IMG/VR virus record: IMGVR_UViG_3300029305_007860
Reading direction: 5' to 3' (one strand)
From: an uncultured virus (IMG/VR IMGVR_UViG_3300029305_007860)
Taxonomy: Duplodnaviria > Heunggongvirae > Uroviricota > Caudoviricetes
Length of the DNA stretch: 64,000 nucleotides
Shown here: in pieces, positions 988 through 59,971 of the stretch
How positions within the stretch are numbered: position 1 is the first letter of the stretch
How the letters are laid out: each line of letters begins with the position of its first letter
Translations under genes and position numbers: made by a program
The notes under the pieces: generated by a model
Told to the model about the DNA's origin: nothing
The model's input: only the letters and a program-made list of their open reading frames with translations
Databases searched by the model: none

Positions 988-1062
988 CGTTTTACTATTA
1001 TGTATTGATTTTTATTATCCTAGCAGGGGCAAGGTAACCCTGTAAAAAAACAAAAAAGGAGG
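988..1062 (+). promoter_or_regulatory. Conserved leader copy 1 (box + hairpin + RBS)
   Basis: CGTTTTACTATTATGTA at 988-1004; stem GCAGGG/CCCTGT, loop GCAAGGTAA at 1023-1043; AAGGAGG. Confidence 0.8.
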
Positions 1063-1069
1063 GATTATA

Positions 1070-2554
1070 ATGGATAATAAGAAAAACTTAAGAGAATTTA
1101 GCGGAATTAAGGTATCTAAACTTAATCGTGCGACGTCAGCTTGTTTTAACGAATTATATAATGAAGTAAAACAGGGAACTGTATATGAGGGTTTTATAAT
1201 TGAAATAGTTTCTGGAGATGTAGATAAATTGGTGATTTCGTTAGTAAAATCAAATGGAGTTACGGAAGAAACAACACCTTTTGGAAAGGCAGTATCTACA
1301 GATATTGAAGACTATGATGAACTTGTCAACTTAATAAATTCGGGAAACTATATTTCGAGAATATATGATGTCGATAATACATCTTTAGTCCTTCTTGTTA
1401 AAGAAAAAGAAGAGATAAAGGACTTAACTTCAGGTTATAACACAGATAAAGAAATTATTTCGTTGTTAAAACATTCGTTAGGAGAAAAAGAGTATGAGGA
1501 AAGAATAGAATATCTTAAAGAACATGGAATTACCGAAGGAAGTTTGTTGTATACAAAGATTCTTGAAAAAATTTCTCCGGGATTTTCGGTTCATAAACCT
1601 GTTTCTCTTTATAAGAAAGTTGGAAAAGGTACCTCTTTAATATCTAAAATACTTTCCAATATTGTTGTCGGAAATAATCTTATTTTACAGGGACCTAAAT
1701 CTGTTGGTAAAAATGTTGCATGGGAGTCGGTAGCATGGCTTTTAAATTGTAATATAGTTACTTTACAGTGTTCAGAAAGATTGACAAGAGCGGATATGTT
1801 AGGCTTTCAATCTTCTGATACATCAAACAAGGAACTTTTAACAGAGGAAGGTTTTTTGGATAAGATTGCTTCGCAAAATACAGGAATTTGGACAGAGAAA
1901 GGTATATCTTATCAGATGGCTCTTGATAAATCTCATAGTCCTGATTTAAAACATGTTCCGGGACCAGTATTGGAGGCTATGATTAGAGCCAATAGAGGAG
2001 AGGGAATTATTCTTCTTGTAGATGAAATGAATTTAGCAGACCCAAATACATTAGCAGGAGTGTTTAATACTTTGACGGACAAACACAGTAAAAGTATTTT
2101 CGTCACAGGATATGGAGAAGAAATCGTTCCAAAACATCTAATTATTGGTGCTACTCAAAATGCTAACACTGGGAATTATATCGGTGTAAATGCTCAAAAT
2201 ACAGCTACTGTGTCTAGATTTACATGTATTGATATCAAGGAAACAGGGTCTATTAAGAATATTCTTCAGAGAGTGGCAGATGAGTTTGATGTTCCTGAGT
2301 ATATTCTTGACGGAATGAACAAAGTATATTGCGAATTCAAAAAGGTTTCAGATAGTGGAGAAGATGGAATATCTTCGGATTCTCTAAATATTAGAGGTTT
2401 TGAATCTGCTGTTAGACTTATCGGAGTGGGAGTTCCTTCTCGAGAAGCTATTATAGAAGGAGTGATTAATACCGTATCAGATTATAACGAAATTGAGGTG
2501 TTAATACAACTTCTTGATAATTTTGTTGAAGAGGATGGGAATTTTAAACACTAG
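1070..2554 (+). CDS. MoxR/CbbQ/CobS-like AAA+ ATPase with N-terminal extension
   Basis: Walker A-like GPKSVGKN, Walker B LLVDEMN, GATQN, SRF; adjacent vWA gene. Confidence 0.85.
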   Translation: MDNKKNLREFSGIKVSKLNRATSACFNELYNEVKQGTVYEGFIIEIVSGDVDKLVISLVKSNGVTEETTPFGKAVSTDIEDYDELVNLINSGNYISRIYDVDNTSLVLLVKEKEEIKDLTSGYNTDKEIISLLKHSLGEKEYEERIEYLKEHGITEGSLLYTKILEKISPGFSVHKPVSLYKKVGKGTSLISKILSNIVVGNNLILQGPKSVGKNVAWESVAWLLNCNIVTLQCSERLTRADMLGFQSSDTSNKELLTEEGFLDKIASQNTGIWTEKGISYQMALDKSHSPDLKHVPGPVLEAMIRANRGEGIILLVDEMNLADPNTLAGVFNTLTDKHSKSIFVTGYGEEIVPKHLIIGATQNANTGNYIGVNAQNTATVSRFTCIDIKETGSIKNILQRVADEFDVPEYILDGMNKVYCEFKKVSDSGEDGISSDSLNIRGFESAVRLIGVGVPSREAIIEGVINTVSDYNEIEVLIQLLDNFVEEDGNFKH

Positions 2555-2623
2555 ATAAGAGATGTTCAATAAGGAGCAAAAGATTTCTCTAATTCCTTAT
2601 TATCTTATGAAAGGAGGAAAAAT

Positions 2624-4921
2624 ATGATAGTAGAATATGATAAAATGTCATTTTCGGAAAAAAATAATAAGATAACTTCTATAAAAAACTGGTTAAAAAA
2701 TGGTGTATCTAAGATATTAAAACCTTTGATTAAATCATATTTGGGAGATAGATTAAGTAAATTTATTAAATCTATTGAACTGGATGTTTCTGATGATTCT
2801 TATGATATATCTACGGCTAATGGGAATCATTATATAAAGGTTTCTTTATCGGAGGAAGAAGCTTGTACATTAGAAAAATCTGATTTAATGAGAGTTTTAA
2901 AATTCAAATTATATCACGAATTATCTCATGTATTATATTCAAGTGAATTAAATCCGGATACAGGAAAGGAATATTATGAAGAAGCAATAAGTAGAATTGC
3001 TGATATTTTTACAGAGATAGCAAGTTGTCAGAATAAGTTTTTTATTTCTAACCATTTAAAAAGTTTATGTTCTGATGTCATGAATTGTATAGAGGATGGA
3101 AGAATTGAAAATATTCTCTGTACAACATATGTAGGAGCCAAAAAACATAGAGATTGGTATAGGCTTACATTATGGAAAAAAAATAAAGTAAAGAATGAGT
3201 CTCCGAAAATAGGAGACCTTCGAAATGCTATATTAACTATTGCTACTATAGGTATGTTGCCTAATGGTTTTAATGTAAAATATCCTAATTCTGGAAATTT
3301 TTTCAACTTTGTTCTTGGATTATCAGGATGTATAGGACAATATGTTTGTTCAAATTCTATTAAAAGTGCTTTTCCTGTTATTGATGAGCTTTCTTATAAG
3401 ATTGCACCTTATTATGTTGATGCTTATGCTTTGTCCGAAGAAGATTACGAACATTATAAGTCAACTCAAAAGAATAGAAAATATTCGGATGAAGAACTTA
3501 ATAAAATCGCTCAAAGAGTAGCGGAAGAAATGCAGAATATGAAGGCTTCTCCTATTCCATCTGCTGATATTCCGTCTACTAATAATGGTCCAATAGTTTC
3601 TGTTCTTACCGATGATGAAATAAAGGGAGAAGAAATATCGTTAGAAACTACGCCTGATGTTATAGTTGATTTAAGGAAAAATCCTGTGTTTTCTGATAAA
3701 GAAGGAGATTCCTTAGATAAGGAGGACAACCCATATTACTATCGTCCTGAAGGGATTGATTCTAATAAAAACAACGATGGTAGCGGAGATTTAAGCCTTG
3801 ATAACGAGAAACAAATGGAATCAAAAACTGATACTTCTTTATCTAAAGAAGAAAATATGGCTGACGATGGTTTGTCACAGTCTTCTGAGTCCAACTCTTT
3901 AAATAAAAGTTCCGAAGAAGATAATAATGGGTATATATTGCCGGATTCTTCTTTTTTAGAATCTCTTATCAGTTCAAGTCTTCAGAATAGAATAGAAGAG
4001 AGTTGTGCCGAGGTTAAAAGCGATATTCAAAGAGCGAATAAAGAACAATCAGAATGGGAAATCAACCAGCATGATTCCTTTCCACTTGATAAACAAACTA
4101 TAAGCGTTTTAGCTCAAGAGTTTGGTGGGTACGAAGATGTTGATATAGTTGATTATCGAAAAAAATCTGGTGTTCGACAAGTTAAATGTCCTTCGGATAT
4201 TTTATTAAAATCTAAACGTCTTGCTCAAAAACTACAAACAATTATTTATAACAAATCTTCAAGAGACAGATATGGTTGTTATAATGGTCTTGTGAATTCG
4301 CAAGATTTGGGAAAATTTCTTACAGGGCAACCAGATTATTATAAGCAGGAAGGAATAAAGAAGAAAACGGATTTTTCTTGTTTGATTTTAAAGGATGATT
4401 CTGGTTCCATGTGTGGTGATAATGAGCATAAAGCTTTGGAAGTTCTTGCTGAATTAGAAGAAGCTTTTAAGATTATTGATTTTCCTCTTCGTATGCAAGC
4501 GTTCTCGACGAAACATGGAGAGACTATGAAAATTATTAAAAGCTGGAATGATAAAAATAAGAATGTATCTTATACATATTCCTTTGGTTCTACTTCTAAG
4601 CCTGATTGGGGGAATAATGATGCATATTCTATATCTCTTGCTACAGATATATTGGCTCAGCGTAAAGAAAAGAACAAACTGTTGATTATAGTATCAGATG
4701 GAGCTCCGTGTTGTTCTACTGAACTTGTAAAAAAAGCAGTTGAAAGAGCTAGAGGCAAGGGTATTTTTGTTATTTCTATTCTTATTGGCACAGAGAACGA
4801 GGTTACATCTAACTGGAATACCTTCACTCAAATGTACGGTCATAATCTTCTTGCCGGTTCCCTTGATAAAATGGGTGACCAGTTATTTAAATTTGTAAAG
4901 AAGTTTATTTCTTTAATTTAA
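2624..4921 (+). CDS. CobT-like vWA domain protein with N-terminal HExxH region
   Basis: HELSH and EDGRIE in N-terminus, acidic linker, MIDAS DDSGSM, VSDGAP. Confidence 0.85.
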   Translation: MIVEYDKMSFSEKNNKITSIKNWLKNGVSKILKPLIKSYLGDRLSKFIKSIELDVSDDSYDISTANGNHYIKVSLSEEEACTLEKSDLMRVLKFKLYHELSHVLYSSELNPDTGKEYYEEAISRIADIFTEIASCQNKFFISNHLKSLCSDVMNCIEDGRIENILCTTYVGAKKHRDWYRLTLWKKNKVKNESPKIGDLRNAILTIATIGMLPNGFNVKYPNSGNFFNFVLGLSGCIGQYVCSNSIKSAFPVIDELSYKIAPYYVDAYALSEEDYEHYKSTQKNRKYSDEELNKIAQRVAEEMQNMKASPIPSADIPSTNNGPIVSVLTDDEIKGEEISLETTPDVIVDLRKNPVFSDKEGDSLDKEDNPYYYRPEGIDSNKNNDGSGDLSLDNEKQMESKTDTSLSKEENMADDGLSQSSESNSLNKSSEEDNNGYILPDSSFLESLISSSLQNRIEESCAEVKSDIQRANKEQSEWEINQHDSFPLDKQTISVLAQEFGGYEDVDIVDYRKKSGVRQVKCPSDILLKSKRLAQKLQTIIYNKSSRDRYGCYNGLVNSQDLGKFLTGQPDYYKQEGIKKKTDFSCLILKDDSGSMCGDNEHKALEVLAELEEAFKIIDFPLRMQAFSTKHGETMKIIKSWNDKNKNVSYTYSFGSTSKPDWGNNDAYSISLATDILAQRKEKNKLLIIVSDGAPCCSTELVKKAVERARGKGIFVISILIGTENEVTSNWNTFTQMYGHNLLAGSLDKMGDQLFKFVKKFISLI

Positions 4922-5009
4922 TAGAAAATAGATTCTTGGAAACAGGAATCTATTTTTTATTATTTTAGATTAATTAAATATATTAATCTTGTTTTATGTG
5001 CGTTTTTTT

Positions 5010-5078
5010 CGTTTTACTATTATGTATAAAGTTTTAAATATCCAAAAGGGAAAAGGTAACCCTAATAAAAAAAAGGAG
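5010..5078 (+). promoter_or_regulatory. Conserved leader copy 2
   Basis: CGTTTTACTATTATGTA at 5010-5026; stem AGGG/CCCT, loop AAAAGGTAA at 5047-5063. Confidence 0.8.
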
Positions 5079-5088
5079 TGTGTATATT

Positions 5089-6213
5089 ATGGATAATTCG
5101 TTAAAACAAAAGATATCGGTAGTTGAAAGAGCAAAGAAATTGGAAAAAATTCGTAAATCTCTTGGAAAAACTCCAATAACAGCAGAAGAACTACAAAAGG
5201 CTTATGAAGAGTCTACAGATATTCAGGAAGTAGAAATTTCAGTTCATATCTCTTCTTGTAATGTGTGTGTAGGCAAAATAAATACTTTGAAAACTTCTGA
5301 ACTATCTGAAGAGGAAAGAGAATTTATTAAAGGAGCTGGAAATTGTAGTAAATATGAGATGTTTCCAAAGGCTCAGTTAAAATTAAATAATATTTTAACA
5401 AAAATTCATCAGAAGAAAGAAATTTGTTCTTTGTCAGGTTCTAATCTTATGAATAAAACTTTATTCATAGAGACTTTTCTTCCTTATTTAAAAGAAATGG
5501 AAAAAGAACTGGAGGAAGTTAAAGAGTCTATCGAAGAGGATTTCGATGATAGGCTTATAGAATTTGAAAATATATTAAATGATATAGTTGTCAAATTATT
5601 TCCAGACAAAACAGAGCATGTAAAGAAGCAAATAGAATTCATTAAAAAGAGAGGAGCTAAAGGTTATACAAGCAGAATCTTTATTGAGATGAAGACAACT
5701 TATGATGGAGAGTCAATAAATAGAGAGGATTTAAGACAGTTTCTAGAAACCATGAAGAAAAATGCAACAGATAAATTTGCGGGAGAAATTTTGTATTCTT
5801 TGTTAGATGATTTATGGCAGGCTTGTATAACTTATGCGGTTAATATTAGTAGCGGAAGGTATAAAGATACTTCGGATTTAAGTGGATTTCTTTCTACAAG
5901 AAATAATTTAAAGAAAGAGGCTATAAAAGTAAGAGGTAATGCGGTACCTATTAAAGATAAAGTGCTTGATATTATTTCTCTTACTGAAAAGGTTGAAGAC
6001 CTGTCTTTGTGTACAGATGGATTCGAAGCTCCTGATTTATGCTTTGACACTCTTGTTGAAATTTATATGACTGCAAGAGAAAACTATGGCTATTTATTAT
6101 CTTTTGGGAACAAGACAAAAACCGGGGCGATAATTCCGTCTTGGTTAAGAATTGAAGAGATAGAGTCTACAGCAGATGAAATAATTAAACTTTCTAAATC
6201 TTCAAGTTTATAA
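5089..6213 (+). CDS. Hypothetical helical protein, possibly DUF3150-like
   Basis: ATG at 5089 fits RBS GGAG 5075-78; position after an AAA/vWA pair recalls plasmid DUF3150 loci, but the family call is weak. Confidence 0.6.
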   Translation: MDNSLKQKISVVERAKKLEKIRKSLGKTPITAEELQKAYEESTDIQEVEISVHISSCNVCVGKINTLKTSELSEEEREFIKGAGNCSKYEMFPKAQLKLNNILTKIHQKKEICSLSGSNLMNKTLFIETFLPYLKEMEKELEEVKESIEEDFDDRLIEFENILNDIVVKLFPDKTEHVKKQIEFIKKRGAKGYTSRIFIEMKTTYDGESINREDLRQFLETMKKNATDKFAGEILYSLLDDLWQACITYAVNISSGRYKDTSDLSGFLSTRNNLKKEAIKVRGNAVPIKDKVLDIISLTEKVEDLSLCTDGFEAPDLCFDTLVEIYMTARENYGYLLSFGNKTKTGAIIPSWLRIEEIESTADEIIKLSKSSSL

Positions 6214-6215
6214 TA

Positions 6216-6255
6216 AAAAATAACACCTTCTATTAGTATAGGAGGTGTTATTTTT
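6216..6255. terminator. Bidirectional terminator
   Basis: AAAAATAACACCTTCTA-ttagta-TAGGAGGTGTTATTTTT between convergent genes. Confidence 0.85.
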
Positions 6256-7508
6256 TATATTCTGTTTATTATTTGTTCTTCTTCTTTTATGTTTAGGTTT
6301 TTATCTTTAAAATGATATAATATATTGTTTTTTTCTATTTTAAACAAAGAAGAATAGAAAGTATAGTTATTGAGTCTCTCTTGTGTTGTGAAGTAAATGT
6401 TCTCGTGATATATTCCTGTATGTTTTAATAAAAAATATGCATCTTTTATAGATTTTACTGCTATTATATATTTTAGAGGATATCCTTTGAGAGATTCAAA
6501 TATTGTATTTATTTTAGGGAATAGTTGGACTTTTTTATAAACATACATATTTTCGTCGGTATAATCGTCAACAACAAAGTCCATTATTATTCCATTTTCT
6601 GAAACTAATTGATTCTCTTCGCTTTTAAAAATATAATTATCAAACGAAATATCGCTCATTTCTGGATAATTAAATACCCCTTTTGATACGTTAAAACCTT
6701 TTTTTTGAAATTCATTTGCGATATTAATTTTGTTATCATTTAGTTCTTTGCCTAGTATATCTAAAAGTTCGTCGCTTTTTCCTATATATATATTGAATTT
6801 ATAAGATATTTCGCTTCTTAGATTGGTATCAATATATTCCATTAGTTGATTTTTTCTGCTGGATTTTCTTGATATATTGTCTAAAATAAACAATACTTTT
6901 ATATCATAAGTCATTGAATTATAAAAACTTTCTGAATGGATGAAGTTTCTATAACTATCCCATTTTTTTATGAGTCTTGATTTTCTTTCGGTGTTCATAT
7001 CAGCTTCTAAAAAATATAAAGTATTACCTGATTTGATTAATCCGTCAGGCATTATATTGGATATAAAAGTAGAAATGTCTTTTTCATCGTAATATTCATC
7101 TAAATAATTTGGGTATTGTGAAACAAACTCCATAACAAATTGATTAAGAGAAATTTGATGTTTTACTTTACTTTCTTTTAACACAATTTTGCTGGTAGAA
7201 AGTAATTTTTTAAACTCTACACCATTCCAATCTAAAGGATTTATTCCAAAAATACCATATTTTTTTAAAAAGTTTATTCCTGATGAAGATATTATATAAT
7301 AGGAGTCTTCTTTATAGTATCCTACCTTTACTATCATTTTTTCCTGATTTTGTAAAGAAGACAGAGTGTTGAGGCAAGTTTTTATAGATAAATGTTCTCT
7401 TTCAAAAACCTGTTTATAAATTTGGTCGAGAGAAAGACATCTATAATGATAAAGTAATGATAATATAATATGTTTTTTCTTGTTTATTGTCATTTTTTCT
7501 TCCTCCAT
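6255..7508 (-). CDS. Replication-relaxation family protein (wHTH + PD-(D/E)xK-like)
   Basis: N-terminal LYHYRCLSLDQI wHTH, HQISLN, PDG..YFLEADMNTE..KWDSY. Confidence 0.75.
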   Translation of the reverse strand: MEEEKMTINKKKHIILSLLYHYRCLSLDQIYKQVFEREHLSIKTCLNTLSSLQNQEKMIVKVGYYKEDSYYIISSSGINFLKKYGIFGINPLDWNGVEFKKLLSTSKIVLKESKVKHQISLNQFVMEFVSQYPNYLDEYYDEKDISTFISNIMPDGLIKSGNTLYFLEADMNTERKSRLIKKWDSYRNFIHSESFYNSMTYDIKVLFILDNISRKSSRKNQLMEYIDTNLRSEISYKFNIYIGKSDELLDILGKELNDNKINIANEFQKKGFNVSKGVFNYPEMSDISFDNYIFKSEENQLVSENGIIMDFVVDDYTDENMYVYKKVQLFPKINTIFESLKGYPLKYIIAVKSIKDAYFLLKHTGIYHENIYFTTQERLNNYTFYSSLFKIEKNNILYHFKDKNLNIKEEEQIINRI

Positions 7509-13430: not shown

Positions 13431-13461
13431 AAAAGAACACTCAATAGCGAGTGTTCTTTTT
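13431..13461 (+). terminator. Terminator closing the guide-RNA locus
   Basis: AAAAGAACACTC-aatagc-GAGTGTTCTTTTT. Confidence 0.85.
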
Positions 13462-13532
13462 CGTTATACTATTATGTAAAAATTTCTTACCCAAGCAAAG
13501 AAAAGGTAGCTTTGCAAATAAAATAAAAGGAG
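13462..13532 (+). promoter_or_regulatory. Conserved leader copy 3
   Basis: CGTTATACTATTATGTA at 13462-78; stem GCAAAG/CTTTGC, loop AAAAGGTAG at 13495-13515. Confidence 0.8.
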
Positions 13533-13543
13533 CGTGAGTATAT

Positions 13544-16390
13544 ATGGGTAAAAATGTAATATATGTAGGTGGTACAAATAATGTAAGTCGTTGTAATAAG
13601 GCAAGAAAATATGGCATAAAGGTTTCTGATATTACTATTGAGGCATTTTCAAGAACTACAGTTACAAAAGAAGCAATTAAATATTATAAGTATGATAAGG
13701 ACGTAACTTTAGAGGATACGGATTTATTTATCGACGAGAAGATGTCCGAATTATATTTTCCTAATGATTTAGTAAGGAGATTAAATCATGAAGAGGTTTT
13801 GTCTATTGTACATCGTTATCTTGAATTTGATTCAAGAAAAGCATATCCTTGTTCGTGTATTGATTTTGAGTTTGGAGGACAAACTCTTTCATATAAACCT
13901 CATTTTATTTATTATAGTGAAGAGCAGGTTTATGGGAAAGGGAAAAAAGGAATTATTAATGTCCCTGTTGTAGAAGTAGTTACTATGACTGCCGGTGCTC
14001 AAAAATTTACTACTGGTAACAAATATGGTTCTGCTAAAGATATAGTATCTTTGCATCATAATTTGGACGGATTAGGGCTTTTGATGGCTGGTAAACATTT
14101 ATTAAAAGGGAAATCTGGTATCGTAAGGTGCTGTGCTGATAGCTTAAAGACTTCTCTTGATAGTTCGGATGATTATTCTAGACCTTTTGTTGAAGCTGAT
14201 ACGGATAATTCTGGTGCTAAAAGTTCCACAAATCGTTGCTGGTTTGAAGTATTCTTTTCTGAAAATGGGAAAATCATTCCTTTGAATAAAACAGGATATT
14301 ATAAAGATTTAGAAAAGAATCAAAAAATCGTATATGATAATAGGAAACTTTTTCCGCAATATTTAGAAACTCTCAATAACTTTCTTATAGGAAAAAACAG
14401 TTGCTCTGATAGTACATGTGTGAAGTGCGATTTCTATGAGTTATGTAAGTATAATCATCAGCCTGTGAGAAAAGATGAAAATGTTATTGAAAAGAAAGAA
14501 GCGGTGGAGCCATCGTTAAACATGCAACAAAGAATGGTATGTGACTTTAAGGAAGGGATATGTTGTGTGGATGCAGGTCCGGGTTCCGGAAAAACTCAGT
14601 GCATGGCATATCGTATTTCTAAGTTATTGTGTGAAGGGACTCTTCCAGAAGAAATATTAGTAATGTCTTTTAGTAAATCAGCTGTCAAGGTTATTACTAA
14701 TCGTGTTAAATTTTTCGTTCATGATGTCTATGGGCTGTACCATATTGATACTGAAAAAATTAAGATTGCCACTTTTAATTCTCTTGGAAATGAGTTGATA
14801 GTAAAATATTACAAAGACTTGGGTTATAGTGATATTCCGGAAATGATTGATGAAGTAGAAATGTTTCATAGAGTACTATCGGCTATTGATTTTGAAAATC
14901 CATGTGAAGGATTTGATTATAAAAACTATAAAATGAAAGGATTTAGCAACAGTATAAAAGGTGGAGTAGTGTCTGAAATAACCTCTGAAATTAAGTATAT
15001 TAGAGAAAATGATATTACTAAAGAGCAATATAAGAATATTGCTACTGAAAAAGGTTATAATGAGAATCAGATTAACTATATTTGGGAAACCAATAATAGA
15101 TATACAGATATTTTATTAAAAAATAATCTTATTGATTATTCGGACCAGTGTTATCAGATATTACGTCTAATTGATTCTATAAATCCAGATGCAATTACTT
15201 CTACTTATAGATATAGTCATATTATTGTAGATGAATTTCAAGATTCTAATGACTTTCAAATGGTATTTTTGTCGGAGCTTATGAACACGGCTTGTTTTAA
15301 AAGTCTTATGGTAGTAGGCGATGATGCTCAGGCTATATATGGTTTTAGAGGAACTACACCTGAAAATATTATCAATTTTACTAAAAAGATAAATATTCCT
15401 ATAGAAGTAAAGAATTTTACTCTTGAAAGAAATTATCGTTCTACAGAAGAGATTGTATCTTTAAGTAATGAAATCTTATCTCACAATAAAAATAAGATTC
15501 AAAAAACATTAACTTCTCACATGGGAGTTTCAGGAAACAAACCGATATTTAAATCTTTTGAAAAGGATTCTATGGAAATAAGCTTTATATGTGATAATAT
15601 AGAGAAACTTATTTCTAACGGGGTAGAAAAGAACCAGATAGCTATAATTTGCTCAAAGAAAATTGCCCTAAAAAAGATATCTAAAGAACTTTCAAAAAGG
15701 GGAATCTTGTCTCAATATGATATGCCAGAACGTTTGCTGGATAATTCAAGAGTTAGAGCTGGGATAGGTTTTTGTAATTTTGTTTCAGATACAAAAGGAA
15801 CCAAAGGGCTTCTTGAATATCTTAATGAAGTATATAATGATACTTTATTTGAAAAGTTCTCGCCTTTGCGTATTCAGTCTTTGCTTGAAACAGCAAGAGA
15901 AGACTTTATAACATATTATACTCCTTTATCCTTAGAGGAACAAAAAGAGTTTGTGTTGAACGCCTTGACTCTTTTGGATGATGGAACAGATGCGGTTTAT
16001 ACAGACTTTTTAGAACGCCTTATATCCAAAACTAAGTATAATATAAATAATCTTCTTGATTATGTTAGAGATTTCTATGAGCTTGATGTAGATGCTACAG
16101 CAGAAAAGACAGGTCAATATGACGCTGTATCTATTGTTACTGCTCATTCTTCAAAGGGAAAAGAATGGGAATATGTATTTGTATCTCTTACTAATTTTGA
16201 AGATGTTCCTTGTAAAAGTGAGGAAGAAAAAGAAGAAATACGAAGATTAATATTTGTTGCATGTACAAGAGCCAAGTATGGACTTATGGTTACTACTTTA
16301 AGAAATAAGAACAAAGATGGAGATTTTATTCCTGAGAATCCTTGGTATAAAGAATTAAAAGATTATAATTCTTTTAACAACTTAGATTAA
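13544..16390 (+). CDS. UvrD/PcrA-family SF1 helicase with ~310-aa N-terminal domain
   Basis: AGPGSGKT, VDEFQD, VGDDAQAIYGFRG, LERNYRST, TAHSSKGKEW, FVACTRAK. Confidence 0.92.
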   Translation: MGKNVIYVGGTNNVSRCNKARKYGIKVSDITIEAFSRTTVTKEAIKYYKYDKDVTLEDTDLFIDEKMSELYFPNDLVRRLNHEEVLSIVHRYLEFDSRKAYPCSCIDFEFGGQTLSYKPHFIYYSEEQVYGKGKKGIINVPVVEVVTMTAGAQKFTTGNKYGSAKDIVSLHHNLDGLGLLMAGKHLLKGKSGIVRCCADSLKTSLDSSDDYSRPFVEADTDNSGAKSSTNRCWFEVFFSENGKIIPLNKTGYYKDLEKNQKIVYDNRKLFPQYLETLNNFLIGKNSCSDSTCVKCDFYELCKYNHQPVRKDENVIEKKEAVEPSLNMQQRMVCDFKEGICCVDAGPGSGKTQCMAYRISKLLCEGTLPEEILVMSFSKSAVKVITNRVKFFVHDVYGLYHIDTEKIKIATFNSLGNELIVKYYKDLGYSDIPEMIDEVEMFHRVLSAIDFENPCEGFDYKNYKMKGFSNSIKGGVVSEITSEIKYIRENDITKEQYKNIATEKGYNENQINYIWETNNRYTDILLKNNLIDYSDQCYQILRLIDSINPDAITSTYRYSHIIVDEFQDSNDFQMVFLSELMNTACFKSLMVVGDDAQAIYGFRGTTPENIINFTKKINIPIEVKNFTLERNYRSTEEIVSLSNEILSHNKNKIQKTLTSHMGVSGNKPIFKSFEKDSMEISFICDNIEKLISNGVEKNQIAIICSKKIALKKISKELSKRGILSQYDMPERLLDNSRVRAGIGFCNFVSDTKGTKGLLEYLNEVYNDTLFEKFSPLRIQSLLETAREDFITYYTPLSLEEQKEFVLNALTLLDDGTDAVYTDFLERLISKTKYNINNLLDYVRDFYELDVDATAEKTGQYDAVSIVTAHSSKGKEWEYVFVSLTNFEDVPCKSEEEKEEIRRLIFVACTRAKYGLMVTTLRNKNKDGDFIPENPWYKELKDYNSFNNLD

Positions 16391-23852: not shown

Positions 23853-24845
23853 TTAACCAAATAAGTTATAACTGATTTCGTATAACTTTCCATCTTCTTT
23901 GTTGTATTTTATAAATCTTCCATCATCTCCCAAGGCTCGATTCCTTATTCTTTCGAATGTAGTAATAAGGAATATATTGAGTTTTGACCCTGTTACAATG
24001 TTTTGTGCTAATGTAAATGCTAAATCATCATTATCCGTAATAAATACTAACATAGGAATTTTTTTAGTATCATTGAAATATCTCATCCATACTCTTGTAC
24101 AAAGTAATCCTTCCCACATTCTTATTTTTTTACGGATATTATCTATATTATCCTCCTTTCTTATAGTATCAAATATCATATATTCGTTTATACCATTAGC
24201 ATCTACAAATCCATAGTATGCATTGCATCTTAGAAATTCTTCTCTTAATGAAAATACTGGTTTTGGTTCAAAACTAATCATCTGAACTTTTGAGGTAATC
24301 ATATCTAAGTAAGTTTCATTCAGCATAATTTGAGATTCGATATTTTTTATACTTGTAAGATTATCTCCTGCTTCCCACTGTATAAACAATCTGTCTGAAT
24401 ATTCATCTAATATATATTTACCGCCTTGTTTGAGACAATAGAATAATTTTGCATCTGAAGGTTTTGCAATGTAATTTCCCGGCTTTCCAGAGCCCATTAT
24501 AAAAAATGCATTTATCATTCCAACACCGAGTAAATTTGTTATTCTACTTCTTGTTTCTTCAATACCCCTGCTATCACAAAATCTTTCTATCTGGTCTATA
24601 GTAGAAAATCTTGCTGTATAGATGTATTCAATTATTTGTATGTCTTCGTTGTCTACTGTCCCATTGTTTACTAACGCCATAATAGGAGTTTTTGCAACAG
24701 TTGAAAAATTATCTTTTAGAAATTGCTGATAATAATTTCTTTTTGTTTCTCTTTGACCTATAATATCTGTGTTTTTTATGTATATCATAGGTTTTCTTCC
24801 ACTTTCCTCTTTTGAAGATGTTTCTAATGCTCTATTATTATCCAT
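23853..24845 (-). CDS. Degenerate replication-relaxation-like (wHTH + nuclease-fold) protein
   Basis: IIEYIYTARFSTIDQI resembles the 6255-7508 N-terminus; C-terminal PMLVFITD; catalytic PD/ExD not evident. Confidence 0.5.
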   Translation of the reverse strand: MDNNRALETSSKEESGRKPMIYIKNTDIIGQRETKRNYYQQFLKDNFSTVAKTPIMALVNNGTVDNEDIQIIEYIYTARFSTIDQIERFCDSRGIEETRSRITNLLGVGMINAFFIMGSGKPGNYIAKPSDAKLFYCLKQGGKYILDEYSDRLFIQWEAGDNLTSIKNIESQIMLNETYLDMITSKVQMISFEPKPVFSLREEFLRCNAYYGFVDANGINEYMIFDTIRKEDNIDNIRKKIRMWEGLLCTRVWMRYFNDTKKIPMLVFITDNDDLAFTLAQNIVTGSKLNIFLITTFERIRNRALGDDGRFIKYNKEDGKLYEISYNLFG

Positions 24846-24861: not shown

Positions 24862-25674
24862 TTAAAAACTTGTATTGCTATTATTTATTATTGTATGAAT
24901 TCTACCATGTAAATGATATTTATCCTTAGTCTCGTCATGTTCAATTTTTCCGATTTTTACAGTGACTTCATCTCCGTTTTTTAGATATGGAAAATTTTGT
25001 GGGAAATAGCATCCGACTACTATATTTGAGCTAATAGTTACCGATACCCATTCAAAGTCCGGAGTGATATTTGTAACCTTTCCTTTGAAAAACTGTCCTT
25101 TTTTGATATCTTTAATATTATATAATTCTTTTCCTTTTCGTCTTTCTTCGGGTAGAAATACTATATTTCCGTTTAATGTAGTCTTTTTATATTTTACTTT
25201 TATTTTTGAATATTTGCTATAAATTTCTCTAATTTCTGTTCCATCATCTGAAAAATCATAATTTTTCATTAGACCTGAGAGTTTTCCGTCAATAGTTATG
25301 TATGCTCCAAATGGTGTTATATAGGTTATTATTCCTTCTAATACTTCACCTGCATATAATTTCTCAAGTATAGGTTTCTCTACTATCTCTTTTGCTTCTT
25401 TCATGGAACCATATACATTATTCTCAATAATTGCTTTTATCGTGAAATTAACTTTCTCTCCTATGTATGATTTCAAAGTTGCATAATGATGAGGCATTAC
25501 GATATCTTCTTCCTCTATTATTATTACTGAATCTAAGCAATGTACTAATAATCTTTTTTGTGTTGATTCTTCAGATAAGTTATAGTCTTCGCATGATGTA
25601 ACAAGTCCTTTTAATACTTTTTTTTCTGCTAATGCTTTTTCTAAATTTATTTTTATATTGACCGCTTTAGCCAT
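24862..25674 (-). CDS. S1 (OB-fold) repeat RNA-binding protein
   Basis: GEVLEGIITYITPFGAYI..LSGLM and KGQFFKGKVTNI S1-like repeats. Confidence 0.75.
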   Translation of the reverse strand: MAKAVNIKINLEKALAEKKVLKGLVTSCEDYNLSEESTQKRLLVHCLDSVIIIEEEDIVMPHHYATLKSYIGEKVNFTIKAIIENNVYGSMKEAKEIVEKPILEKLYAGEVLEGIITYITPFGAYITIDGKLSGLMKNYDFSDDGTEIREIYSKYSKIKVKYKKTTLNGNIVFLPEERRKGKELYNIKDIKKGQFFKGKVTNITPDFEWVSVTISSNIVVGCYFPQNFPYLKNGDEVTVKIGKIEHDETKDKYHLHGRIHTIINNSNTSF

Positions 25675-32963: not shown

Positions 32964-32971
32964 AACTATAC

Positions 32972-33046
32972 ACTCCTTTTTTATTATTTAGAGGCTACCT
33001 TACCTCTTATGGTTATTGAATAAATAAGTTACATAATAGTATAACG
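32972..33046 (-). promoter_or_regulatory. Conserved leader copy 4
   Basis: Minus strand CGTTATACTATTATGTA (33046-33030); stem AGAGG/CCTCT, loop TAAGGTAG (33007-32990). Confidence 0.8.
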
Positions 33047-33097
33047 ATTTTTTTCTTAGCACTTTATTACTAGAGTTCTCTTTTAATCTTATAAGCA

Positions 33098-34275: not shown

Positions 34276-34502
34276 ACTTGTCCTCCTTTTTTACCTTATA
34301 TAATAAATGAATAAATATATACAAAATAGTAAAACGAAAACTTTATTTATCTCTATAATTTTCGTTTTATAATAAATAAATTCATAATTATATTAAATTT
34401 TTTTTGGCGATACCATTAATGGCAATAACTCTAGTTTTTTCTATTTTTATTGATTTTATAACTCGTAATTCGTATAATAAATATAATATAGGAGGTGTGC
34501 TC

Positions 34503-50400: not shown

Positions 50401-50435
50401 CTCCTACTATCATTATAGTATAACGAGAACTACAA

Positions 50436-55286: not shown

Positions 55287-55540
55287 AATATCCTCCTTAT
55301 CCGTATTTCTTTTTACTATTCAATTTGTTTTTTACTATTTTTATGTATTTTATATTTGTTAATTATGATATTATATTTATAAATCATTTACAAGGATAAA
55401 ATATACAATAACGCTTAATATTATTGCGTTTTTATGATTGATATAATATATTATCATACATTATCATATATTATTGTATATTACACCATTTCCTCTTCTT
55501 GCTCGTTTTAAATAAATTCACCTCGTTAATTTAGCACTAT

Positions 55541-55615
55541 CGTTTTACTATTATGTATTTATTTGATTAACCAAGTAGGAAAAGGGAACCTATATAATAA
55601 AAGTAAAAAAGGAGG
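55541..55615 (+). promoter_or_regulatory. Conserved leader copy 5
   Basis: CGTTTTACTATTATGTA at 55541-57; stem GTAGG/CCTAT, loop AAAAGGGAA at 55575-93. Confidence 0.8.
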
Positions 55616-55621
55616 GATAAT

Positions 55622-58600
55622 ATGGTTATATCAGTAAAAAACAAATTGAATAAAGGAGATATATTACCTATTTCGGTAACAGATAATCATGTGTATCTTT
55701 CATCACCTAATTCGGGGAATAAATTAGATATAACCAATCTCATCGGAGAGGAGTTAAACTATTTATTACACGTTGGAAGAGCAGTAGCAGTAGTAAAAGA
55801 CGAAAACAGTATGCATGTATCTTACTGCTGTAACTATCACGTGCATAGTAATTACAGTTTACTGGATGGAATGAGCAGAGTATCAGAAATCGCAGATAAA
55901 TCCAGCGGTATATCTGCCATAACAGACCACGGTAACTGTTTTGCTATTTTAAAATGGCAAAAAGCTATGAAAAAAGCAGGGAAAAGAGCAATATTCGGAT
56001 TTGAAGCATATATGGAAGACATATTAACCAAAGAAAAAAATGGGTCTCATGGACTATTTCTGGTTAAAAACGAATGCGGATTAAAGAACTTATTCAAGCT
56101 TTGTTCCATAGCATATAATGATGAAAATTATTATTACAAACCACATGTTACTTCAGAGATGTTGTTAAAATATCACGAAGGACTAATATTTACTTCTGCA
56201 TGTATCGGAGGAGAACTTTCTAAAACCATTCTCACCAATTATGAAAAAGCCAAAGAAATTGCATTGTTTTATAAAAATCTTTTTAAAGATGATTATTACA
56301 TAGAAATTCAAAGGCATAATTTTGATGATGAATTTAAAGCAAATCCTCTTTTAATCAAGCTTGCTAATGAATTAAACATAAAAGTAGTAGGAGCAAATGA
56401 CAGCCATTTTATAAACGATAGTGATGTAGAAGAGCACAAAAAACTACTTGCTTTATCATACGGTAAACTTGTATCTGAAATTACCGGATTCACAGGAACC
56501 GGATATCATTACAAAACAGACAAAGAAATGGTAGAAGATTTTTATGATATACCTGAAGCAATATCGAACACTCTTGAAATTGCAGAAAAATGTAACTGTG
56601 TTTTAAAAACAGGAGAGTATCATATGCCAAGTTTTCCTATTCCTGACGGTTTCAAAGATGACAACGAATATCTGTCTTATCTTATAGACAAGGGATTTAA
56701 GGAACGATTCATTAATACTCCTTACCTCAATTCCCCTGAATATCTAGAGAGACTAGCTTACGAGAAATCAGTAGTACTTTCTATGGGTTTTTCTTCTTAT
56801 TTCCTTATAGTTCACGATTATGTGAATTATGCAAAAGAAAAGGGAATATTAGTTGGTCCGGGAAGAGGTAGCGGAGCCGGAAGTCTTTGCCTGTATTCTC
56901 TTAAGATTACCGATTTAGACCCTATAAAATATGGGTTGAAATTCGAAAGATTTCTTAATCCTGACAGAATTACAATGCCTGATATAGATATAGATTTCGA
57001 AGACGAAAGAAGAGAAGAGGTAATCGAATATGTCCGTTCAAAATACGGCAACGAACACGTCTGCAATATAATAACATTTGGTACAATGCAAGCAAAATTA
57101 GCTATTAAAGACCTCAGTCGAGTAACAGGAGAAGACGTTAGCTTTTCAAACAATATAACCAAAAAACTTAATCCTAAAGCCGAAACCCTAAAAGAAAGTC
57201 TTGAAGGAGAACTTGCAAGTTCGGAACTTATTGATTTGATTAACTCAAATCAAAAGGTCAAAGGCATAATTAACAGTGCTCTAAAACTTGAAGCAAACCC
57301 AAGACAGACTTCTACTCATGCTTGTGGAATAGTAATATCTGACAGCCCTATTTATAATCATCTGCCTACAGCCATGATAAAAAAAGAGAAAAACTCAGAC
57401 AAAAAACTTCTTACATCACAAGTAACCATGACAGAAGTAGAAGAGTTAGGACTTCTTAAAGCAGATTTTCTTGGATTAAAGACTCTTAATGTTATAGGAC
57501 GTTCATTAAATATCATAAATACGCTAAGAAAAAACAAAGGTCTTGATGTTTTCAAAAGTTATTTAGATATTCCTCTAAATGACCCATATGTATATGCCGA
57601 CATCTCAAACGGTAAGACTTTTGCAGTATTTCAGCTTGATAAAGAAGGAATGAGGAACTTCATGAAAGAGATTTTTGCCGACGTTAACGATAAAATATCT
57701 TTAATAGAGCAAAAATATTCCTTATCAGGATATTCAAACATCACAGGAAACGGAACCAATACAGACGGATATATAAAAGAAATGTCTTCCTTAGGTGATG
57801 ATTTATTCGAAAGATTAATTGCCGGCGTTTCTCTTTACCGTCCGGGTCCTATGGATTACATCCCGGAATATCTTAAAAACATGAATAATCCTGAAGATAT
57901 CAAATATGATACTCCAGCATTAGAGCCTATCCTTAAAAATACTTACTCTGTAATAGTATATCAGGAACAGGTAATGGATATAGTAAGAGCTTTAGCCGGA
58001 TTTACAGCCGGACAAAGCGATACCATACGTAAAGCCATGGGAAAAAAGGTAGAATCCATACTTGAAGAATATAAACCTCTCTTCATAAAAGGTTGTGTTT
58101 CAAACGGTATATCAGAAGACACAGCTATAGAAATATGGTGTAAAATGTCGGATTTTGCTAAATATGCATTTAACAAATCCCATGCCGCCGCTTACAGTGT
58201 CATCACCTTTGTTTGTGCTTGGATTAAATACTATTATCCATCTGTATATATGGCTTCAGTGCTTAATGTATATGCCGATAACAACGAAAAACTCAGAGGT
58301 TATGTATCATGTACTAAATCTATGGGGATAAACATTATTCCTCCAGATATTAATTTATCAGGTGATACCTTCTTAACTAACGGAACAGATATTTTGTTCG
58401 GTCTTAAAGGGTTAAAAGGGTTAAAAAAACTGACTAAAGTAATTATAGAGGAACGTAAAAACGGTAAATTCGAGTCTGTACAAGATTTTGTATCTCGTAC
58501 ATATCCATTAAAAGTTGCAAAACTGGCTTATGAATCACTCGTTTATTCAGGAGCTTTCGACCAGTTCAACCATTCCAGAAAAGCCTTAATAGAATGTTCA

Positions 58601-59359
58601 GACAAGTTGATGGAAGCAGGCAAAAAGATTGTTTCAAACATAAAAAAAGAATCCGAAAATCAGTTATCGTTTTTTGATGTAATAGGTGTCCAACCAAACA
58701 CTATTTGTCTTGATATACCCGAAACGAAAGAGTATTCAGACAGAGAAAAGCTAGAATCCGAATTGGATATTGCCGGTATATATATATCTGCACATCCTTT
58801 AGATAATTATTCCAAAAAACTTTCAGATATAGGAGTAAGCGAAATAGCATTTATAAAAGATGATAACGACTCAGTTGTAGAAGGAAAATATACTTTTGCA
58901 GGAACTATCACCGATGTAAAAGAATTTATCACTAAAAAAGGAGATAAAATGGCTACTTTTACATTAGCAGATACCGGAAGCAATATTAAGTGTACTGTAT
59001 TTCCAAATGATTATGAAACTGCCAAGGAATACATTAATAACCCTAAGTCTTTAGTAGTAGTTAAAGGCATTGTGGAAAATAATGATACTTACGGAACTCA
59101 GTTATTAGTCAATACTATTATTGATATCGACAAAGTTCCTGATAACACAGCCTATTCTAAGGTATTTGTCAAGGTTGATGATATCGAATCCGAAAGCCAC
59201 AACTTAGACAAAATTTTATGTATCCACAAAGGAAACATCCCTGTAACAGTTCAGTCAAACGGAAAATTATATACTATGAACACTTCTGTAACCCCGACAA
59301 GTTCGCTTTTTATGTCTTTGTCAAACAAATTCGGATACGAAAACGTAAAATTTTCTTAA
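55622..59359 (+). CDS. dnaE: DNA polymerase III alpha subunit
   Basis: PHP HVHSNYSLLDG/TDHG, GPGRGSGAGSL, PDIDIDF, KADFLGL, YAFNKSHA, C-terminal OB fold. Confidence 0.96.
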   Translation: MVISVKNKLNKGDILPISVTDNHVYLSSPNSGNKLDITNLIGEELNYLLHVGRAVAVVKDENSMHVSYCCNYHVHSNYSLLDGMSRVSEIADKSSGISAITDHGNCFAILKWQKAMKKAGKRAIFGFEAYMEDILTKEKNGSHGLFLVKNECGLKNLFKLCSIAYNDENYYYKPHVTSEMLLKYHEGLIFTSACIGGELSKTILTNYEKAKEIALFYKNLFKDDYYIEIQRHNFDDEFKANPLLIKLANELNIKVVGANDSHFINDSDVEEHKKLLALSYGKLVSEITGFTGTGYHYKTDKEMVEDFYDIPEAISNTLEIAEKCNCVLKTGEYHMPSFPIPDGFKDDNEYLSYLIDKGFKERFINTPYLNSPEYLERLAYEKSVVLSMGFSSYFLIVHDYVNYAKEKGILVGPGRGSGAGSLCLYSLKITDLDPIKYGLKFERFLNPDRITMPDIDIDFEDERREEVIEYVRSKYGNEHVCNIITFGTMQAKLAIKDLSRVTGEDVSFSNNITKKLNPKAETLKESLEGELASSELIDLINSNQKVKGIINSALKLEANPRQTSTHACGIVISDSPIYNHLPTAMIKKEKNSDKKLLTSQVTMTEVEELGLLKADFLGLKTLNVIGRSLNIINTLRKNKGLDVFKSYLDIPLNDPYVYADISNGKTFAVFQLDKEGMRNFMKEIFADVNDKISLIEQKYSLSGYSNITGNGTNTDGYIKEMSSLGDDLFERLIAGVSLYRPGPMDYIPEYLKNMNNPEDIKYDTPALEPILKNTYSVIVYQEQVMDIVRALAGFTAGQSDTIRKAMGKKVESILEEYKPLFIKGCVSNGISEDTAIEIWCKMSDFAKYAFNKSHAAAYSVITFVCAWIKYYYPSVYMASVLNVYADNNEKLRGYVSCTKSMGINIIPPDINLSGDTFLTNGTDILFGLKGLKGLKKLTKVIIEERKNGKFESVQDFVSRTYPLKVAKLAYESLVYSGAFDQFNHSRKALIECSDKLMEAGKKIVSNIKKESENQLSFFDVIGVQPNTICLDIPETKEYSDREKLESELDIAGIYISAHPLDNYSKKLSDIGVSEIAFIKDDNDSVVEGKYTFAGTITDVKEFITKKGDKMATFTLADTGSNIKCTVFPNDYETAKEYINNPKSLVVVKGIVENNDTYGTQLLVNTIIDIDKVPDNTAYSKVFVKVDDIESESHNLDKILCIHKGNIPVTVQSNGKLYTMNTSVTPTSSLFMSLSNKFGYENVKFS

Positions 59360-59422
59360 CAGGTAATATATCGGCAGTAATTATCTACTGCCGATTTCTT
59401 TATGAAAGGAGTGATATAATCT

Positions 59423-59827
59423 ATGATAAAACCTTTAATCATATTTATACTTACGTGTCTTGTTTTAAGCCTCATTAAGGCACTTCCAGACATCATTTGG
59501 TCATTTACCTATCTATTATCATTAAAAAGGCTAAATAAGGGCAATAACAGCCTTTATGCACCATCTGATGATTCCAGTGGAGAAACTTATCATAACACCC
59601 CGGATATGGCTAATACCATTTTAAAAGATGAACCTTTATATGTATACCCTTCATCGTCCGAGGTTCCGGCTCCATATATTTTTACGGAAGAAGAAGAGGA
59701 AGAATTATTAAAACAAATACCTTCTGATGATGACGATATAGAATTTCGTGACGATTTAGATTTAATCATTCAAGACATCGCAGAAAGAGAAGAATTTGAT
59801 AAGACCTTCAGCGAAATTTTCGCTTAA
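59423..59827 (+). CDS. Hypothetical membrane-anchored acidic protein
   Basis: N-terminal hydrophobic helix, AAGGAG RBS. Confidence 0.65.
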   Translation: MIKPLIIFILTCLVLSLIKALPDIIWSFTYLLSLKRLNKGNNSLYAPSDDSSGETYHNTPDMANTILKDEPLYVYPSSSEVPAPYIFTEEEEEELLKQIPSDDDDIEFRDDLDLIIQDIAEREEFDKTFSEIFA

Positions 59828-59906
59828 TTTCAAGACACTCTTTAAAAATAAAGCTATTTCCCCTTATAGGAGATAGCTTTATTTTTATATTCCCTACATA
59901 TTTTAT

Positions 59907-59971
59907 CGTTTTACTATTGTGTAACTATTTTATTAACCAACAGGAAAAGGTAGCCTGTCAAAAAAAAGGAG
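59907..59971 (+). promoter_or_regulatory. Conserved leader copy 6
   Basis: CGTTTTACTATTGTGTA at 59907-23; stem ACAGG/CCTGT, loop AAAAGGTAG at 59940-58. Confidence 0.8.

Follow-up and report, generated by a model that had tools for sequence, protein, structure and literature searches.

The window, that is, the whole stretch of DNA analysed here (64,000 nt of the uncultured virus record IMGVR_UViG_3300029305_007860), has a GC content of 30% and contains 50 open reading frames (ORFs). Six leaders in it carry the element under study, a short hairpin (P2) with a conserved loop word placed upstream of the Shine-Dalgarno sequence (SD). They precede an AAA-vWA gene pair, orf5089, a uvrD-like gene, a YhaM-like gene, dnaE and orf59980 (Table 1). 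The gene labels AAA_5, vWA, UvrD and DnaE given in the preliminary description of this DNA are supported by Pfam, while the YhaM-like label is weak (NF010007, E 6.7e-6, far under the cut-off). Genes for a Replic_Relax protein, a coupling protein, an Alp7A-like actin, ParA, RecG, RecJ, RecD2, a topoisomerase and an S1-domain protein are also present in the window.

The window represents a large conjugative element of a gut bacterium, and its gene content is that of a family of conjugative megaplasmids of Bacillota, represented by 11 PLSDB records of 127–722 kb from Paenibacillus, Brevibacillus, Aneurinibacillus, Geobacillus, Bacillus, Jeotgalibacillus, Clostridium and Clostridioides. Membership is indicated by Replic_Relax, AAA-vWA, DnaE, the S1-like gene with a 330-aa gene, RecD2, topoisomerase and coupling protein, with homologues of 24–44% identity in the pSC2, pJFP838A, BTB_502p and pJeoMA records. 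A 'MOBL relaxase' label was rejected, mobL of pLS20 being annotated as another family. A closer relative from the gut (L010/L011) has an AAA protein 32% identical to that of the window. Scans for related AAA and DnaE loci found no close relatives in viral contigs, one weak match in GTDB genomes and, in metagenomes, three loci of one 32% relative. P0004–P0009 are AAA relatives at 44–54%. The role of pJeoMA is called unexplained in the available text of its paper, which mentions no such motif (PMC5027565). In our literature search, whose scope left out most subscription journals, no description was found of the plasmid family, its sigma promoters or an S1-linked leader.

Six hairpins with variable stems and a fixed loop word

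The six P2 hairpins of the preliminary description were all confirmed at the positions listed in Table 1. Each has a stem of 4–6 bp and a loop of 8–9 nt ending in AAGG(T/G)AR, followed by an A-run and AGGAG, and in all six copies a CC dinucleotide lies 2–3 nt 5′ of the stem, as had been reported. The loop reads GGU in five copies and GGG (GGG-A) in the remaining one. The AAGGKAR word occurs 48 times in the window and is associated with a stem of at least 4 bp with at least 2 G-C pairs at seven of these sites, six of which are the leader hairpins and the seventh (16154) lies inside the uvrD coding region. In 100 dinucleotide shuffles, the mean number of such sites was 0.29 and the maximum 2. 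RNAalifold recovered the inner 4 bp of P2, with both-sided changes at 3 of them. Stem sequences thus differ while pairing is kept, which supports the earlier proposal of a structure-selected cis element in mRNA leaders.

The comparison with Rfam that the preliminary description had proposed gave no family match: covariance models at gathering threshold returned nothing across the window, and E-value scans around two leaders gave sub-threshold matches only. The element is thus absent from Rfam. Contigs from four of nine DNA sequencing runs were compared over positions 900–5300 and leader variants were not found; a single divergent contig piece over the first box (see below) reads as a cross-mapped dnaE leader.

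An 18-bp box precedes each hairpin

The preliminary description was correct for the hairpins but incomplete, since it omitted two further components of the cassette, an upstream box and a helix between the 5′ arm of the leader and the start codon. The near-invariant 18-bp box TCGTTWTACTATTRTGTA lies upstream of all six hairpins, which lie 41–46 nt behind the start of TCGTTWTACTATTRTGTA. Its six exact copies each precede a P2 hairpin. Seven matches are found in the window when at most one mismatch is allowed, and none in 100 shuffles. The seventh box is accompanied by an AAGGTAA word but by no G-C hairpin, and an eighth, degenerate one is directly followed by an SD (Table 1). Conservation is much higher in the box than in the leader, and the sequence shared by the copies amounts to about 85 bp in all.

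At a fixed offset, the boxes contain a TATTAT, TATTGT, TATTTT or TATAAT hexamer. None of the eight window boxes has a −35-like hexamer. They do not form a canonical Sigma-A promoter, as judged by the absence of a −35 TTGACA at 15–19 nt spacing and of a TG before the −10 (extended −10 as defined in the available text of PMC7438776). Several boxes are preceded by terminator-like hairpins or T-runs. These features suggest a promoter role for the box, in which the −10 hexamer is TATWRT and CGTTWTAC, an extension upstream of it, replaces the −35. From such a promoter, transcripts would begin about 7 nt past the −10 hexamer and have a leader of 55–65 nt. The box could also be an operator overlapping the −10, of the type that, as in the EGeRS2 and CUP regulons, is bound by a plasmid repressor controlling its own gene too. 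It is not found upstream of the helix-turn-helix genes at 7700 or 20253. In viral contigs, the box pattern gave one match, without hairpin or SD. A three-part pattern gave one match, in coding sequence.

The 5′ arm of the leader is complementary to the start-codon region

When folded from the end of the box, the 5′ arm pairs with the start-codon region, and P2, the A-run and the SD lie inside the enclosed loop. With the copies set in register on CC:GG and without gaps, 33 of the 36 cells of ORF nucleotides 2–7 are paired. Pairs at ORF nucleotide 5 are T-A, T-A, C-G, A-T and A-T across copies, with one mismatch. The energies of cognate arm and start regions sum to −54.4 kcal/mol compared to a mean of −40.1 for swapped combinations, and 7 of 720 permutations were as good (124 of 5040 with an arm of fixed length and the seventh copy included). 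Shuffling of the arms with CC kept fixed gave, with copies in order, p = 0.01, 0.06, 0.04, 0.27, 0.03 and 0.81 (combined, 0.0016). All six cassette ORFs start with ATGG, versus 12 of 34 other genes. This helix (P1) begins 4–8 nt past the −10, which is the expected position of the 5′ end. In predicted ensembles, the SD is mostly unpaired and the G residues of AUGG are paired with a probability of 0.78–1.0. The leader is therefore predicted from its sequence to be a ring that P1 closes over the start codon, with P2, the A-run and the SD inside. P1 was not recovered by RNAalifold on a MAFFT alignment, since the alignment does not bring CC and AUG into register.

A WGG-hairpin tag is enriched in leaders of related megaplasmids

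Leaders of the relatives display a recurrent layout, hereafter the tag: a −10-like hexamer, about 12 A-rich nt, WGG, one free base, a hairpin of 4–7 bp starting with a purine, a U-rich stretch and the SD. It was seen in leaders of AAA, vWA, ssb and other genes of the plasmids named above. We scored the leaders of ORFs with an upstream gap of at least 80 nt, against a null in which GG is kept and the next 22 nt are shuffled. Tagged leaders amounted to 80/445 in pJeoMA (null 9.8, max 16), 50/289 in pJFP838A (null 14.7, max 19), 46/284 in the first 400 of the 502 kb of BTB_502p (null 9.5, max 16), 21/297 in the Brevibacillus plasmid (null 8.7, max 12), 20/370 in pSC2 (null 8.4, max 14) and 5/82 in the Geobacillus plasmid (null 1.5, max 4). 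The tag is therefore enriched in six of the seven relatives scanned, about 40 nt before start codons, where it marks 5–18% of scored leaders. Controls were at or within the null: pCW3 (1/23), phi3626 (0/12), 250-kb samples of chromosome-sized records (3/118 and 4/137) and the first 50 kb of BTB_78p (1/25) and of pLS20 (0/19). The same was observed for 25-kb stretches from Aneurinibacillus (1/17) and P. thiaminolyticus (0/14).

As for P2, the tag stems covary: five pair types occur at position 3 and six at position 4 across the 80 pJeoMA leaders. The distance from −10 to WGG is 23–25 nt at 50 of 59 sites in pJeoMA and 34 of 43 in BTB_502p. AGG(T/A/G)A peaks 30–44 nt before the start in pJFP838A (53 sites). 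Among 5-mers, AGGTA is enriched in pJFP838A (p 6.5e-12) and AGGCA in Brevibacillus, and no AGG word is enriched in pSC2 or the C. difficile plasmid. Other prefixes also exceeded the null maximum, namely WAG (32 vs 17.4) and WGT (39 vs 16.1) in pJeoMA, WAG in pJFP838A (42 vs 28.6) and WGA in the Geobacillus plasmid (7 vs 2.8); these plasmid excesses probably come from the same leaders read in a shifted register. With control records, WCG went over the null maximum in that of P. cellulosilyticus (7, max 6) and WAG in phi3626 stayed within the null.

The C. difficile BI1 plasmid (W01) has several CTATAAT promoters followed by AAGT and an AU-only hairpin, with no AGG (e.g. L003 near 19920 and 24693). 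Its top leader words are GTATA and AGTAT, and WAG with a stem is not enriched (18 vs 16.1). These AAGT leaders are possibly a lineage variant of the tag.

The preliminary description had proposed that the element coordinates DNA-metabolism genes. It does lie in leaders of such genes, but a limitation to DNA metabolism does not hold, the regulon of the relatives being far larger.

Relationship between the window form and the tag

The window form is read here as a rearranged variant of the family-wide tag, and the two are probably homologous in view of their common word, spacing and targets. Both include AGG-N-R, placed 32–40 nt from the AUG in the window and at a median of 39–42 nt in the relatives. 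The stem starts 25–31 nt past the −10 in the window and 27–29 nt past it in pJeoMA and BTB_502p, and the CC of the window occupies the position of GG in the relatives, 21–26 nt from the −10. AAA, vWA and uvrD are common target genes. All nine leaders of AAA orthologues have WGG 28–56 nt upstream, the background of AGG in a similar interval being 13–37%.

In the gut relative L010, the AGG word is found before the stem as well as in the loop. A box CGTCTGTATATWR precedes the AAA and primase genes of L010/L011, followed by hairpins with AAAGG loops and different stems. The vWA leader (L010:2950-3007) has a 6-bp hairpin before the SD without an AGG loop; those of BTB_502p, pJeoMA and pJFP838A have the AGG word. 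The L010-type pattern gave two matches, both without SD or ORF.

Candidate trans-acting factors

The S1-like protein (270 aa) is encoded by all five relatives searched. Its nine PLSDB matches are all family members and none was obtained in the phage collection; a representative library contains many more S1-like relatives of similar length. The AlphaFold model, built with 79 sequences, shows three OB folds with a predicted local distance difference test (pLDDT) value of 94, and its top PDB match is bS1 in the 30S mRNA-delivery complex (9gut; E 3e-14, TM 0.40 by query). As the product of a family core gene whose closest solved fold is ribosomal bS1, the S1-repeat protein put forward in the preliminary description remains, on this modelled fold, the best candidate for a partner. 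That it is the factor reading the tag is a tentative proposal, to which we give somewhat less than an even chance. The leader of the S1 gene itself has no tag in the four relatives examined, and simple autoregulation therefore has no support. S1 unfolds structured initiation regions, a role that Bacillota S1 is for the most part not known to have.

A homologue of the 330-aa gene was found behind the S1 gene in all four relatives compared. The model of its product is poor (pLDDT 45) and gave no PDB match at E up to 0.001. Its Atlas neighbours are unnamed Bacillota clusters, in one of which Replic_Relax is found on 23% of members.

A SigE/K-like sigma factor (L006:1147-1794, L008:1297-2058 and L009:1132-1878, among others) is present in all eight family records searched and is 43–48% identical across hosts. 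For the three that we examined, the best NCBIfam scores were those of SigE and SigK, below cut-offs. In the C. difficile plasmid, the sigma gene lies just upstream of pilin-like and PrgI-like genes. No sigma gene was detected among the 50 window ORFs, the window being 64 kb of a 117,307-bp contig whose other ~53 kb were unseen. Tagged promoters of relatives seldom have TTGACA (6/74, 3/42 and 1/28; the comparison set is unmatched, with several candidate −10s per leader). TTAT at −24 to −22 from the −10 occurs in 32/74 tagged promoters versus 3/296 control windows of pJeoMA, and in 23/42 versus 13/168 and 20/28 versus 12/112 in two other sets. This TTAT puts ATA at about the spacing of SigE promoters, of which ATA-N16-CATATATA is an example given in the available text of PMC3789822, and ATA was found at the SigE position in 34/74, 27/42 and 8/28 tagged promoters. 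CA before the −10 was found in only 26/74, 8/42 and 0/28 of them, and the window boxes have no SigE-type element, with ATA some 16 nt before CATAnnnT.

Proposed translational gating and its alternatives

What the sequence shows directly is the box, the covarying P2 stems, the complementarity that underlies P1, the enrichment across the family and the co-occurrence of S1-like and sigma genes; promoter activity, a start site, repression by P1, protein binding and the identity of the protein are inferred. Each copy would be a complete expression cassette of a Bacillota conjugative megaplasmid. Its leader would fold so that the 5′ end pairs with its own AUGG and the next codons (P1), enclosing P2 with AGG-N-R in the loop. 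P1 would leave the SD open and the start codon paired, and translation would be off or slow by default. A plasmid protein that binds RNA and recognises AGG-N-R would then either open P1 or bring the mRNA to the 30S subunit. Such translational gating, by a plasmid factor that reads single-stranded AGG-N-R beside a helix, is the best explanation of our data, with slightly better than even prospects of being correct. A doubtful but more inclusive version is a private expression channel: a plasmid sigma factor would transcribe leaders tagged with AGG-N-R and the plasmid S1-like protein would load them on ribosomes of hosts whose own S1 is not known to unfold structured initiation regions; in the lineage of the window, the tag would have moved into the loop and a start-codon helix would have been gained, which would keep replication and recombination genes from being translated as long as the S1-like key is missing. 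Taken together, the promoter-plus-leader cassette and the family tag point to an undescribed plasmid-wide control signal.

Several observations weigh against this interpretation. P1 is weak in two of the six copies, those of the YhaM-like gene and orf59980, whose arms pair better with the start of another gene, and the orf5089 arm ties between its own and another start. True covariation is limited to ORF nucleotide 5 and partly 8, nucleotides 3, 4, 6 and 7 hardly varying. The gene behind the seventh box has a short arm, TTCAT, complementary to its own ATGAA start, which is not significant (p 0.78). In pJeoMA, BTB_502p and pJFP838A, P1 is not found, cognate pairing being no better than swapped, and the start codon of the gut relative L010 is folded differently, in another hairpin. 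Homology between window and family rests on position and a five-letter word; their topologies and upstream promoter elements differ. The strict family form is not enriched in the window (3/34; null 1.1, max 3), the loop form is nearly absent in the relatives (0–3 each), and only 3 of 9 leaders of AAA orthologues pass the strict tag test. The C. difficile plasmid has an S1-like gene, yet the tag is not enriched there (6/179; null 3.8, max 7). The chromosomal controls were two other records and not the host chromosomes of C. perfringens, B. thuringiensis and J. malaysiensis. Finally, we settled on the definition of the tag with these plasmids already in view, and two looser ones used before it were mostly without signal. 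A 'C-TATAAT then AGG' test gave p 0.93 for pJFP838A, 0.96 for pSC2 and 0.62 for Brevibacillus, with 0.03 for the C. difficile plasmid and 0.01 for the window, and pooled p values for the second version were 0.14 and 0.32. The signal emerged only once position and hairpin were required.

Among the alternatives, a role in mRNA stability is improbable but has the most in its favour. P1 would hide the 5′ end, and P2 with a bound factor would block 5′-to-3′ decay by RNase J, or GG beside the helix would be an endoribonuclease site aided by the S1-like protein, the cassette setting half-life. P1 indeed starts at the expected 5′ end, GG is single-stranded beside the stem in the relatives, and the 330-aa gene is conserved after the S1 gene in the window and in the four relatives compared. 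T4 RegB, moreover, cuts GGA with S1 as cofactor, and in one model substrate described in the available text of PMC1702504 the GGA is unpaired and the last G paired. However, RegB depends on GGA being invariant and on a single strand rich in A, whereas the third base here is T, A, C or G; the 330-aa model provides no support, and exact pairing of the start codon is not needed for such an element. We consider it rather more unlikely that the leader is a promoter-proximal pause or attenuator, whose nascent hairpin would stall or release RNA polymerase as long as the AGG word is not bound by a plasmid factor. The tight spacing between −10 and WGG would fit, as would TTNTTT, found after the hairpin in 33/74 pJeoMA leaders and known as the NusG pause word of B. 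subtilis (available text of bioRxiv 10.1101/2022.10.28.514324). This word is found in only 5/42, 2/28, 0/11 and 2/13 leaders of other plasmids, though, and the window hairpins, in each of the six copies, have an A-run behind them instead of the U's of a NusG-dependent pause. Such a pause would also leave P1 unexplained.

The preliminary description had suggested a CC:GG pseudoknot. In the form of a switch, ligand-controlled or not, where the start is free when the arm CC pairs with the loop GG and locked when it pairs with AUGG, it has little chance of being correct. CC and GG are invariant in all six copies, ACC:GGU is possible in the YhaM-like and orf59980 copies and by a slide in the uvrD copy, and arm-loop energies (−2.8 and −3.7) approach the arm-start values in the two copies with a weak P1. 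The arm-loop duplex has only 2–4 bp, however, and is weaker than the arm-start duplex in each of the six copies (−1.4 to −4.2 vs −3.5 to −12.5 kcal/mol). Of the six copies, five have a base 5′ of CC that is complementary to ORF nucleotide 5, with three pair types, and two have one that is complementary, in the same register, to the loop base. L010/L011 keep the AAAGG loop in the AAA leader without a CC partner. Pairing with the loop is thus not supported as the main role of CC. It is very unlikely that only the DNA box is functional, as promoter or operator, and that the rest is a relic of a copied promoter-RBS (ribosome-binding site) cassette with helices as by-products: the box is far better conserved than the leader and two further boxes lack a G-C hairpin, but the stems remain paired despite their different sequences, the arms follow the codons of each gene and the 80 pJeoMA stems covary. 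The least credible alternative is a hairpin, as raised in the preliminary description, or a Frpo-like promoter, read on transferred single-stranded DNA (ssDNA) after conjugation. The element is conjugative, with a coupling protein and a Replic_Relax protein, and its genes could act early in the recipient. Yet the copies, spread over 59 kb, always follow the coding strand (five plus, one minus), and therefore one transferred strand would carry opposite forms. Two stems are closed by G-U pairs, valid in the sense strand only, and P1 reaches into the ORF. Known ssDNA promoters form by annealing of inverted repeats (PMC8708921, section 4.1), while the box here lies outside any stem.

If translational gating holds, the cassette would give a handle on the role of an orphan plasmid S1 protein and on the single control of dozens of scattered megaplasmid genes. 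In Gram-positive hosts, it might also serve as a compact orthogonal switch for translation.

Other features of the window and its relatives

The features discussed above are listed in Table 1.

Table 1. Boxes, leaders and associated genes in the window
Feature	Coordinates	Strand	Details
Box 1, putative −35-less promoter	987..1004	+	−10-like TATTAT at 996-1001
Leader 1	1009..1083	+	P1 arm 1009-1020 (CC 1019-20), P2 1023-1043, SD 1057, AUG 1070, P1 3′ strand 1072-1083
AAA ATPase and vWA protein	1070..4921	+	AAA 1070-2554, vWA 2624-4921; core pair of the megaplasmid family
Box 2	5009..5026	+	
Leader 2	5031..5108	+	arm 5031-5044 (CC 5042-43), P2 5047-5063, SD 5074, AUG 5089
orf5089	5089..6213	+	374 aa, no family match; one 27% relative
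Replic_Relax-family protein	6255..7508	−	marker of the megaplasmid family (11 PLSDB records)
Box 3	13461..13478	+	
Leader 3	13482..13555	+	arm 13482-13493, P2 13495-13515, SD 13528, AUG 13544
UvrD-like helicase gene	13544..16390	+	Pfam
330-aa gene	23853..24845	−	after the S1 gene
S1-like protein, three OB folds	24862..25674	−	candidate trans factor, family core gene
YhaM-like gene	31935..32963	−	weak sub-cut-off match
Leader 4	32943..33029	−	arm 33029-33008 (CC 33012-11), P2 33007-32990, SD 32977, AUG 32963
Box 4	33030..33047	−	
Seventh box	34275..34337	−	box 34337-34320 (1 mismatch), AAGGTAA at 34297, no G-C hairpin
Eighth box, degenerate	50409..50426	−	3 mismatches, SD directly after, no hairpin leader
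Box 5	55540..55557	+	
Leader 5	55558..55638	+	arm 55558-55573 (CC 55571-72), P2 55575-55593 (loop AAGGGAA), SD 55610, AUG 55622
dnaE (DNA polymerase III alpha)	55622..59359	+	Pfam
Box 6	59906..59923	+	
Leader 6	59925..59995	+	arm 59925-59939 (CC 59937-38), P2 59940-59958, SD 59967, AUG 59980; weakest P1
orf59980	59980..60333	+	117 aa, no family match

Two genes begin with the same codons, and the 120 nt upstream of them are nearly identical (45458-45580, minus strand, and 62838-62958, plus strand), which amounts to a promoter and signal cassette present in duplicate and not related to the box. A near-identical repeat of about 60 nt is found near 63035 and 63897 (minus strand), within and after the ORF 62958-63731. 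The region 52250-53000, between parA and the coupling-protein gene, is very AT-rich and gene-free with many TATAAT-like repeats, and is a possible partition or origin region. A ParE-family toxin gene of a probable toxin-antitoxin pair (33454-33717) and a gene for a large surface adhesin with TQ/SpaA domains (37892-43315) are located on the minus strand.

In the relatives, a palindrome TTGACTATAGTCAA, TTGACAAAAGTCAA-like in L004, lies over the −35 of many promoters including that of dnaE (L005, L057, L058, L110 and L111; intergenic). These palindromes likely define a second, repressor-controlled regulon of the same plasmid family. An Rfam scan of 140 kb of pJeoMA and BTB_502p detected two group I introns and nothing else; those of pJeoMA are at L142:12574-12948 and L143:16868-17231, one of them inside a split dnaE. 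A split dnaE occurs in the C. difficile, C. perfringens and Brevibacillus plasmids as well, but that of the window is whole.

Comparison with known systems

CsrA/RsmA sites are purine words with GG in a hairpin loop upstream of the SD, and CsrA needs GGA. The window element is alike in the GG word of its loop, located here 20–28 nt upstream of the SD. It does not have the GGA, since the loops read GGU or GGG and the base is free in the relatives. PreQ1-I (RF00522) likewise has an A-rich tail between a short stem and the SD; the window sequence nevertheless reaches 13 bits where the gathering score is 39 (E 3.4), and its 3′ tail is unable to pair with the loop.

T4 RegB also relies on a GG word in the leader, with S1 as specificity factor. 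According to the available text of PMC1702504, it acts on an invariant GGA in an A-rich single strand, mostly in the SD, with host S1. In the window and the relatives, by contrast, the third base varies, a stem follows, the site is upstream of the SD and the S1-like protein is plasmid-encoded; no nuclease was identified. The closest solved fold of the latter protein is that of bS1 during mRNA delivery, and its tandem OB folds could bind A-rich single-stranded RNA. It differs from bS1 in having three OB folds in 270 aa and scores far under bS1 family cut-offs, and within PLSDB it is restricted to plasmids of this family.

The CUP elements of IncN plasmids are, like the window element, conserved repeats upstream of establishment and replication genes, and they are read by a plasmid factor, ArdK (available text of PMC6289460). 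They are enterobacterial and form a double-stranded DNA operator conserved in sequence, whereas below the box the window cassette keeps a structure and a short single-stranded word. In the pLS20 family, EGeRS1 and EGeRS2 likewise join scattered operons of a Bacillota conjugative plasmid into a regulon through a repeated upstream cassette. In the available text of PMC8708921, EGeRS2 is a strong promoter bound by a repressor, and EGeRS1 consists of 400–600 bp inverted repeats with no strong sigma-A promoter. The window cassette, in contrast, is of about 85 bp with variable stems, a fixed loop word and pairing to the ORF, and does not have the EGeRS1 form. EGeRS and CUP/ArdK are the closest in kind, yet both operate at the DNA level. 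No family that we tested includes the window motif, which is a new, RNA-level form of repeated plasmid regulatory cassette. This RNA-level reading sets it apart from the known DNA operators and ssDNA promoters, and it would concern up to about one fifth of the scored leaders on little-understood megaplasmids of 127–722 kb.

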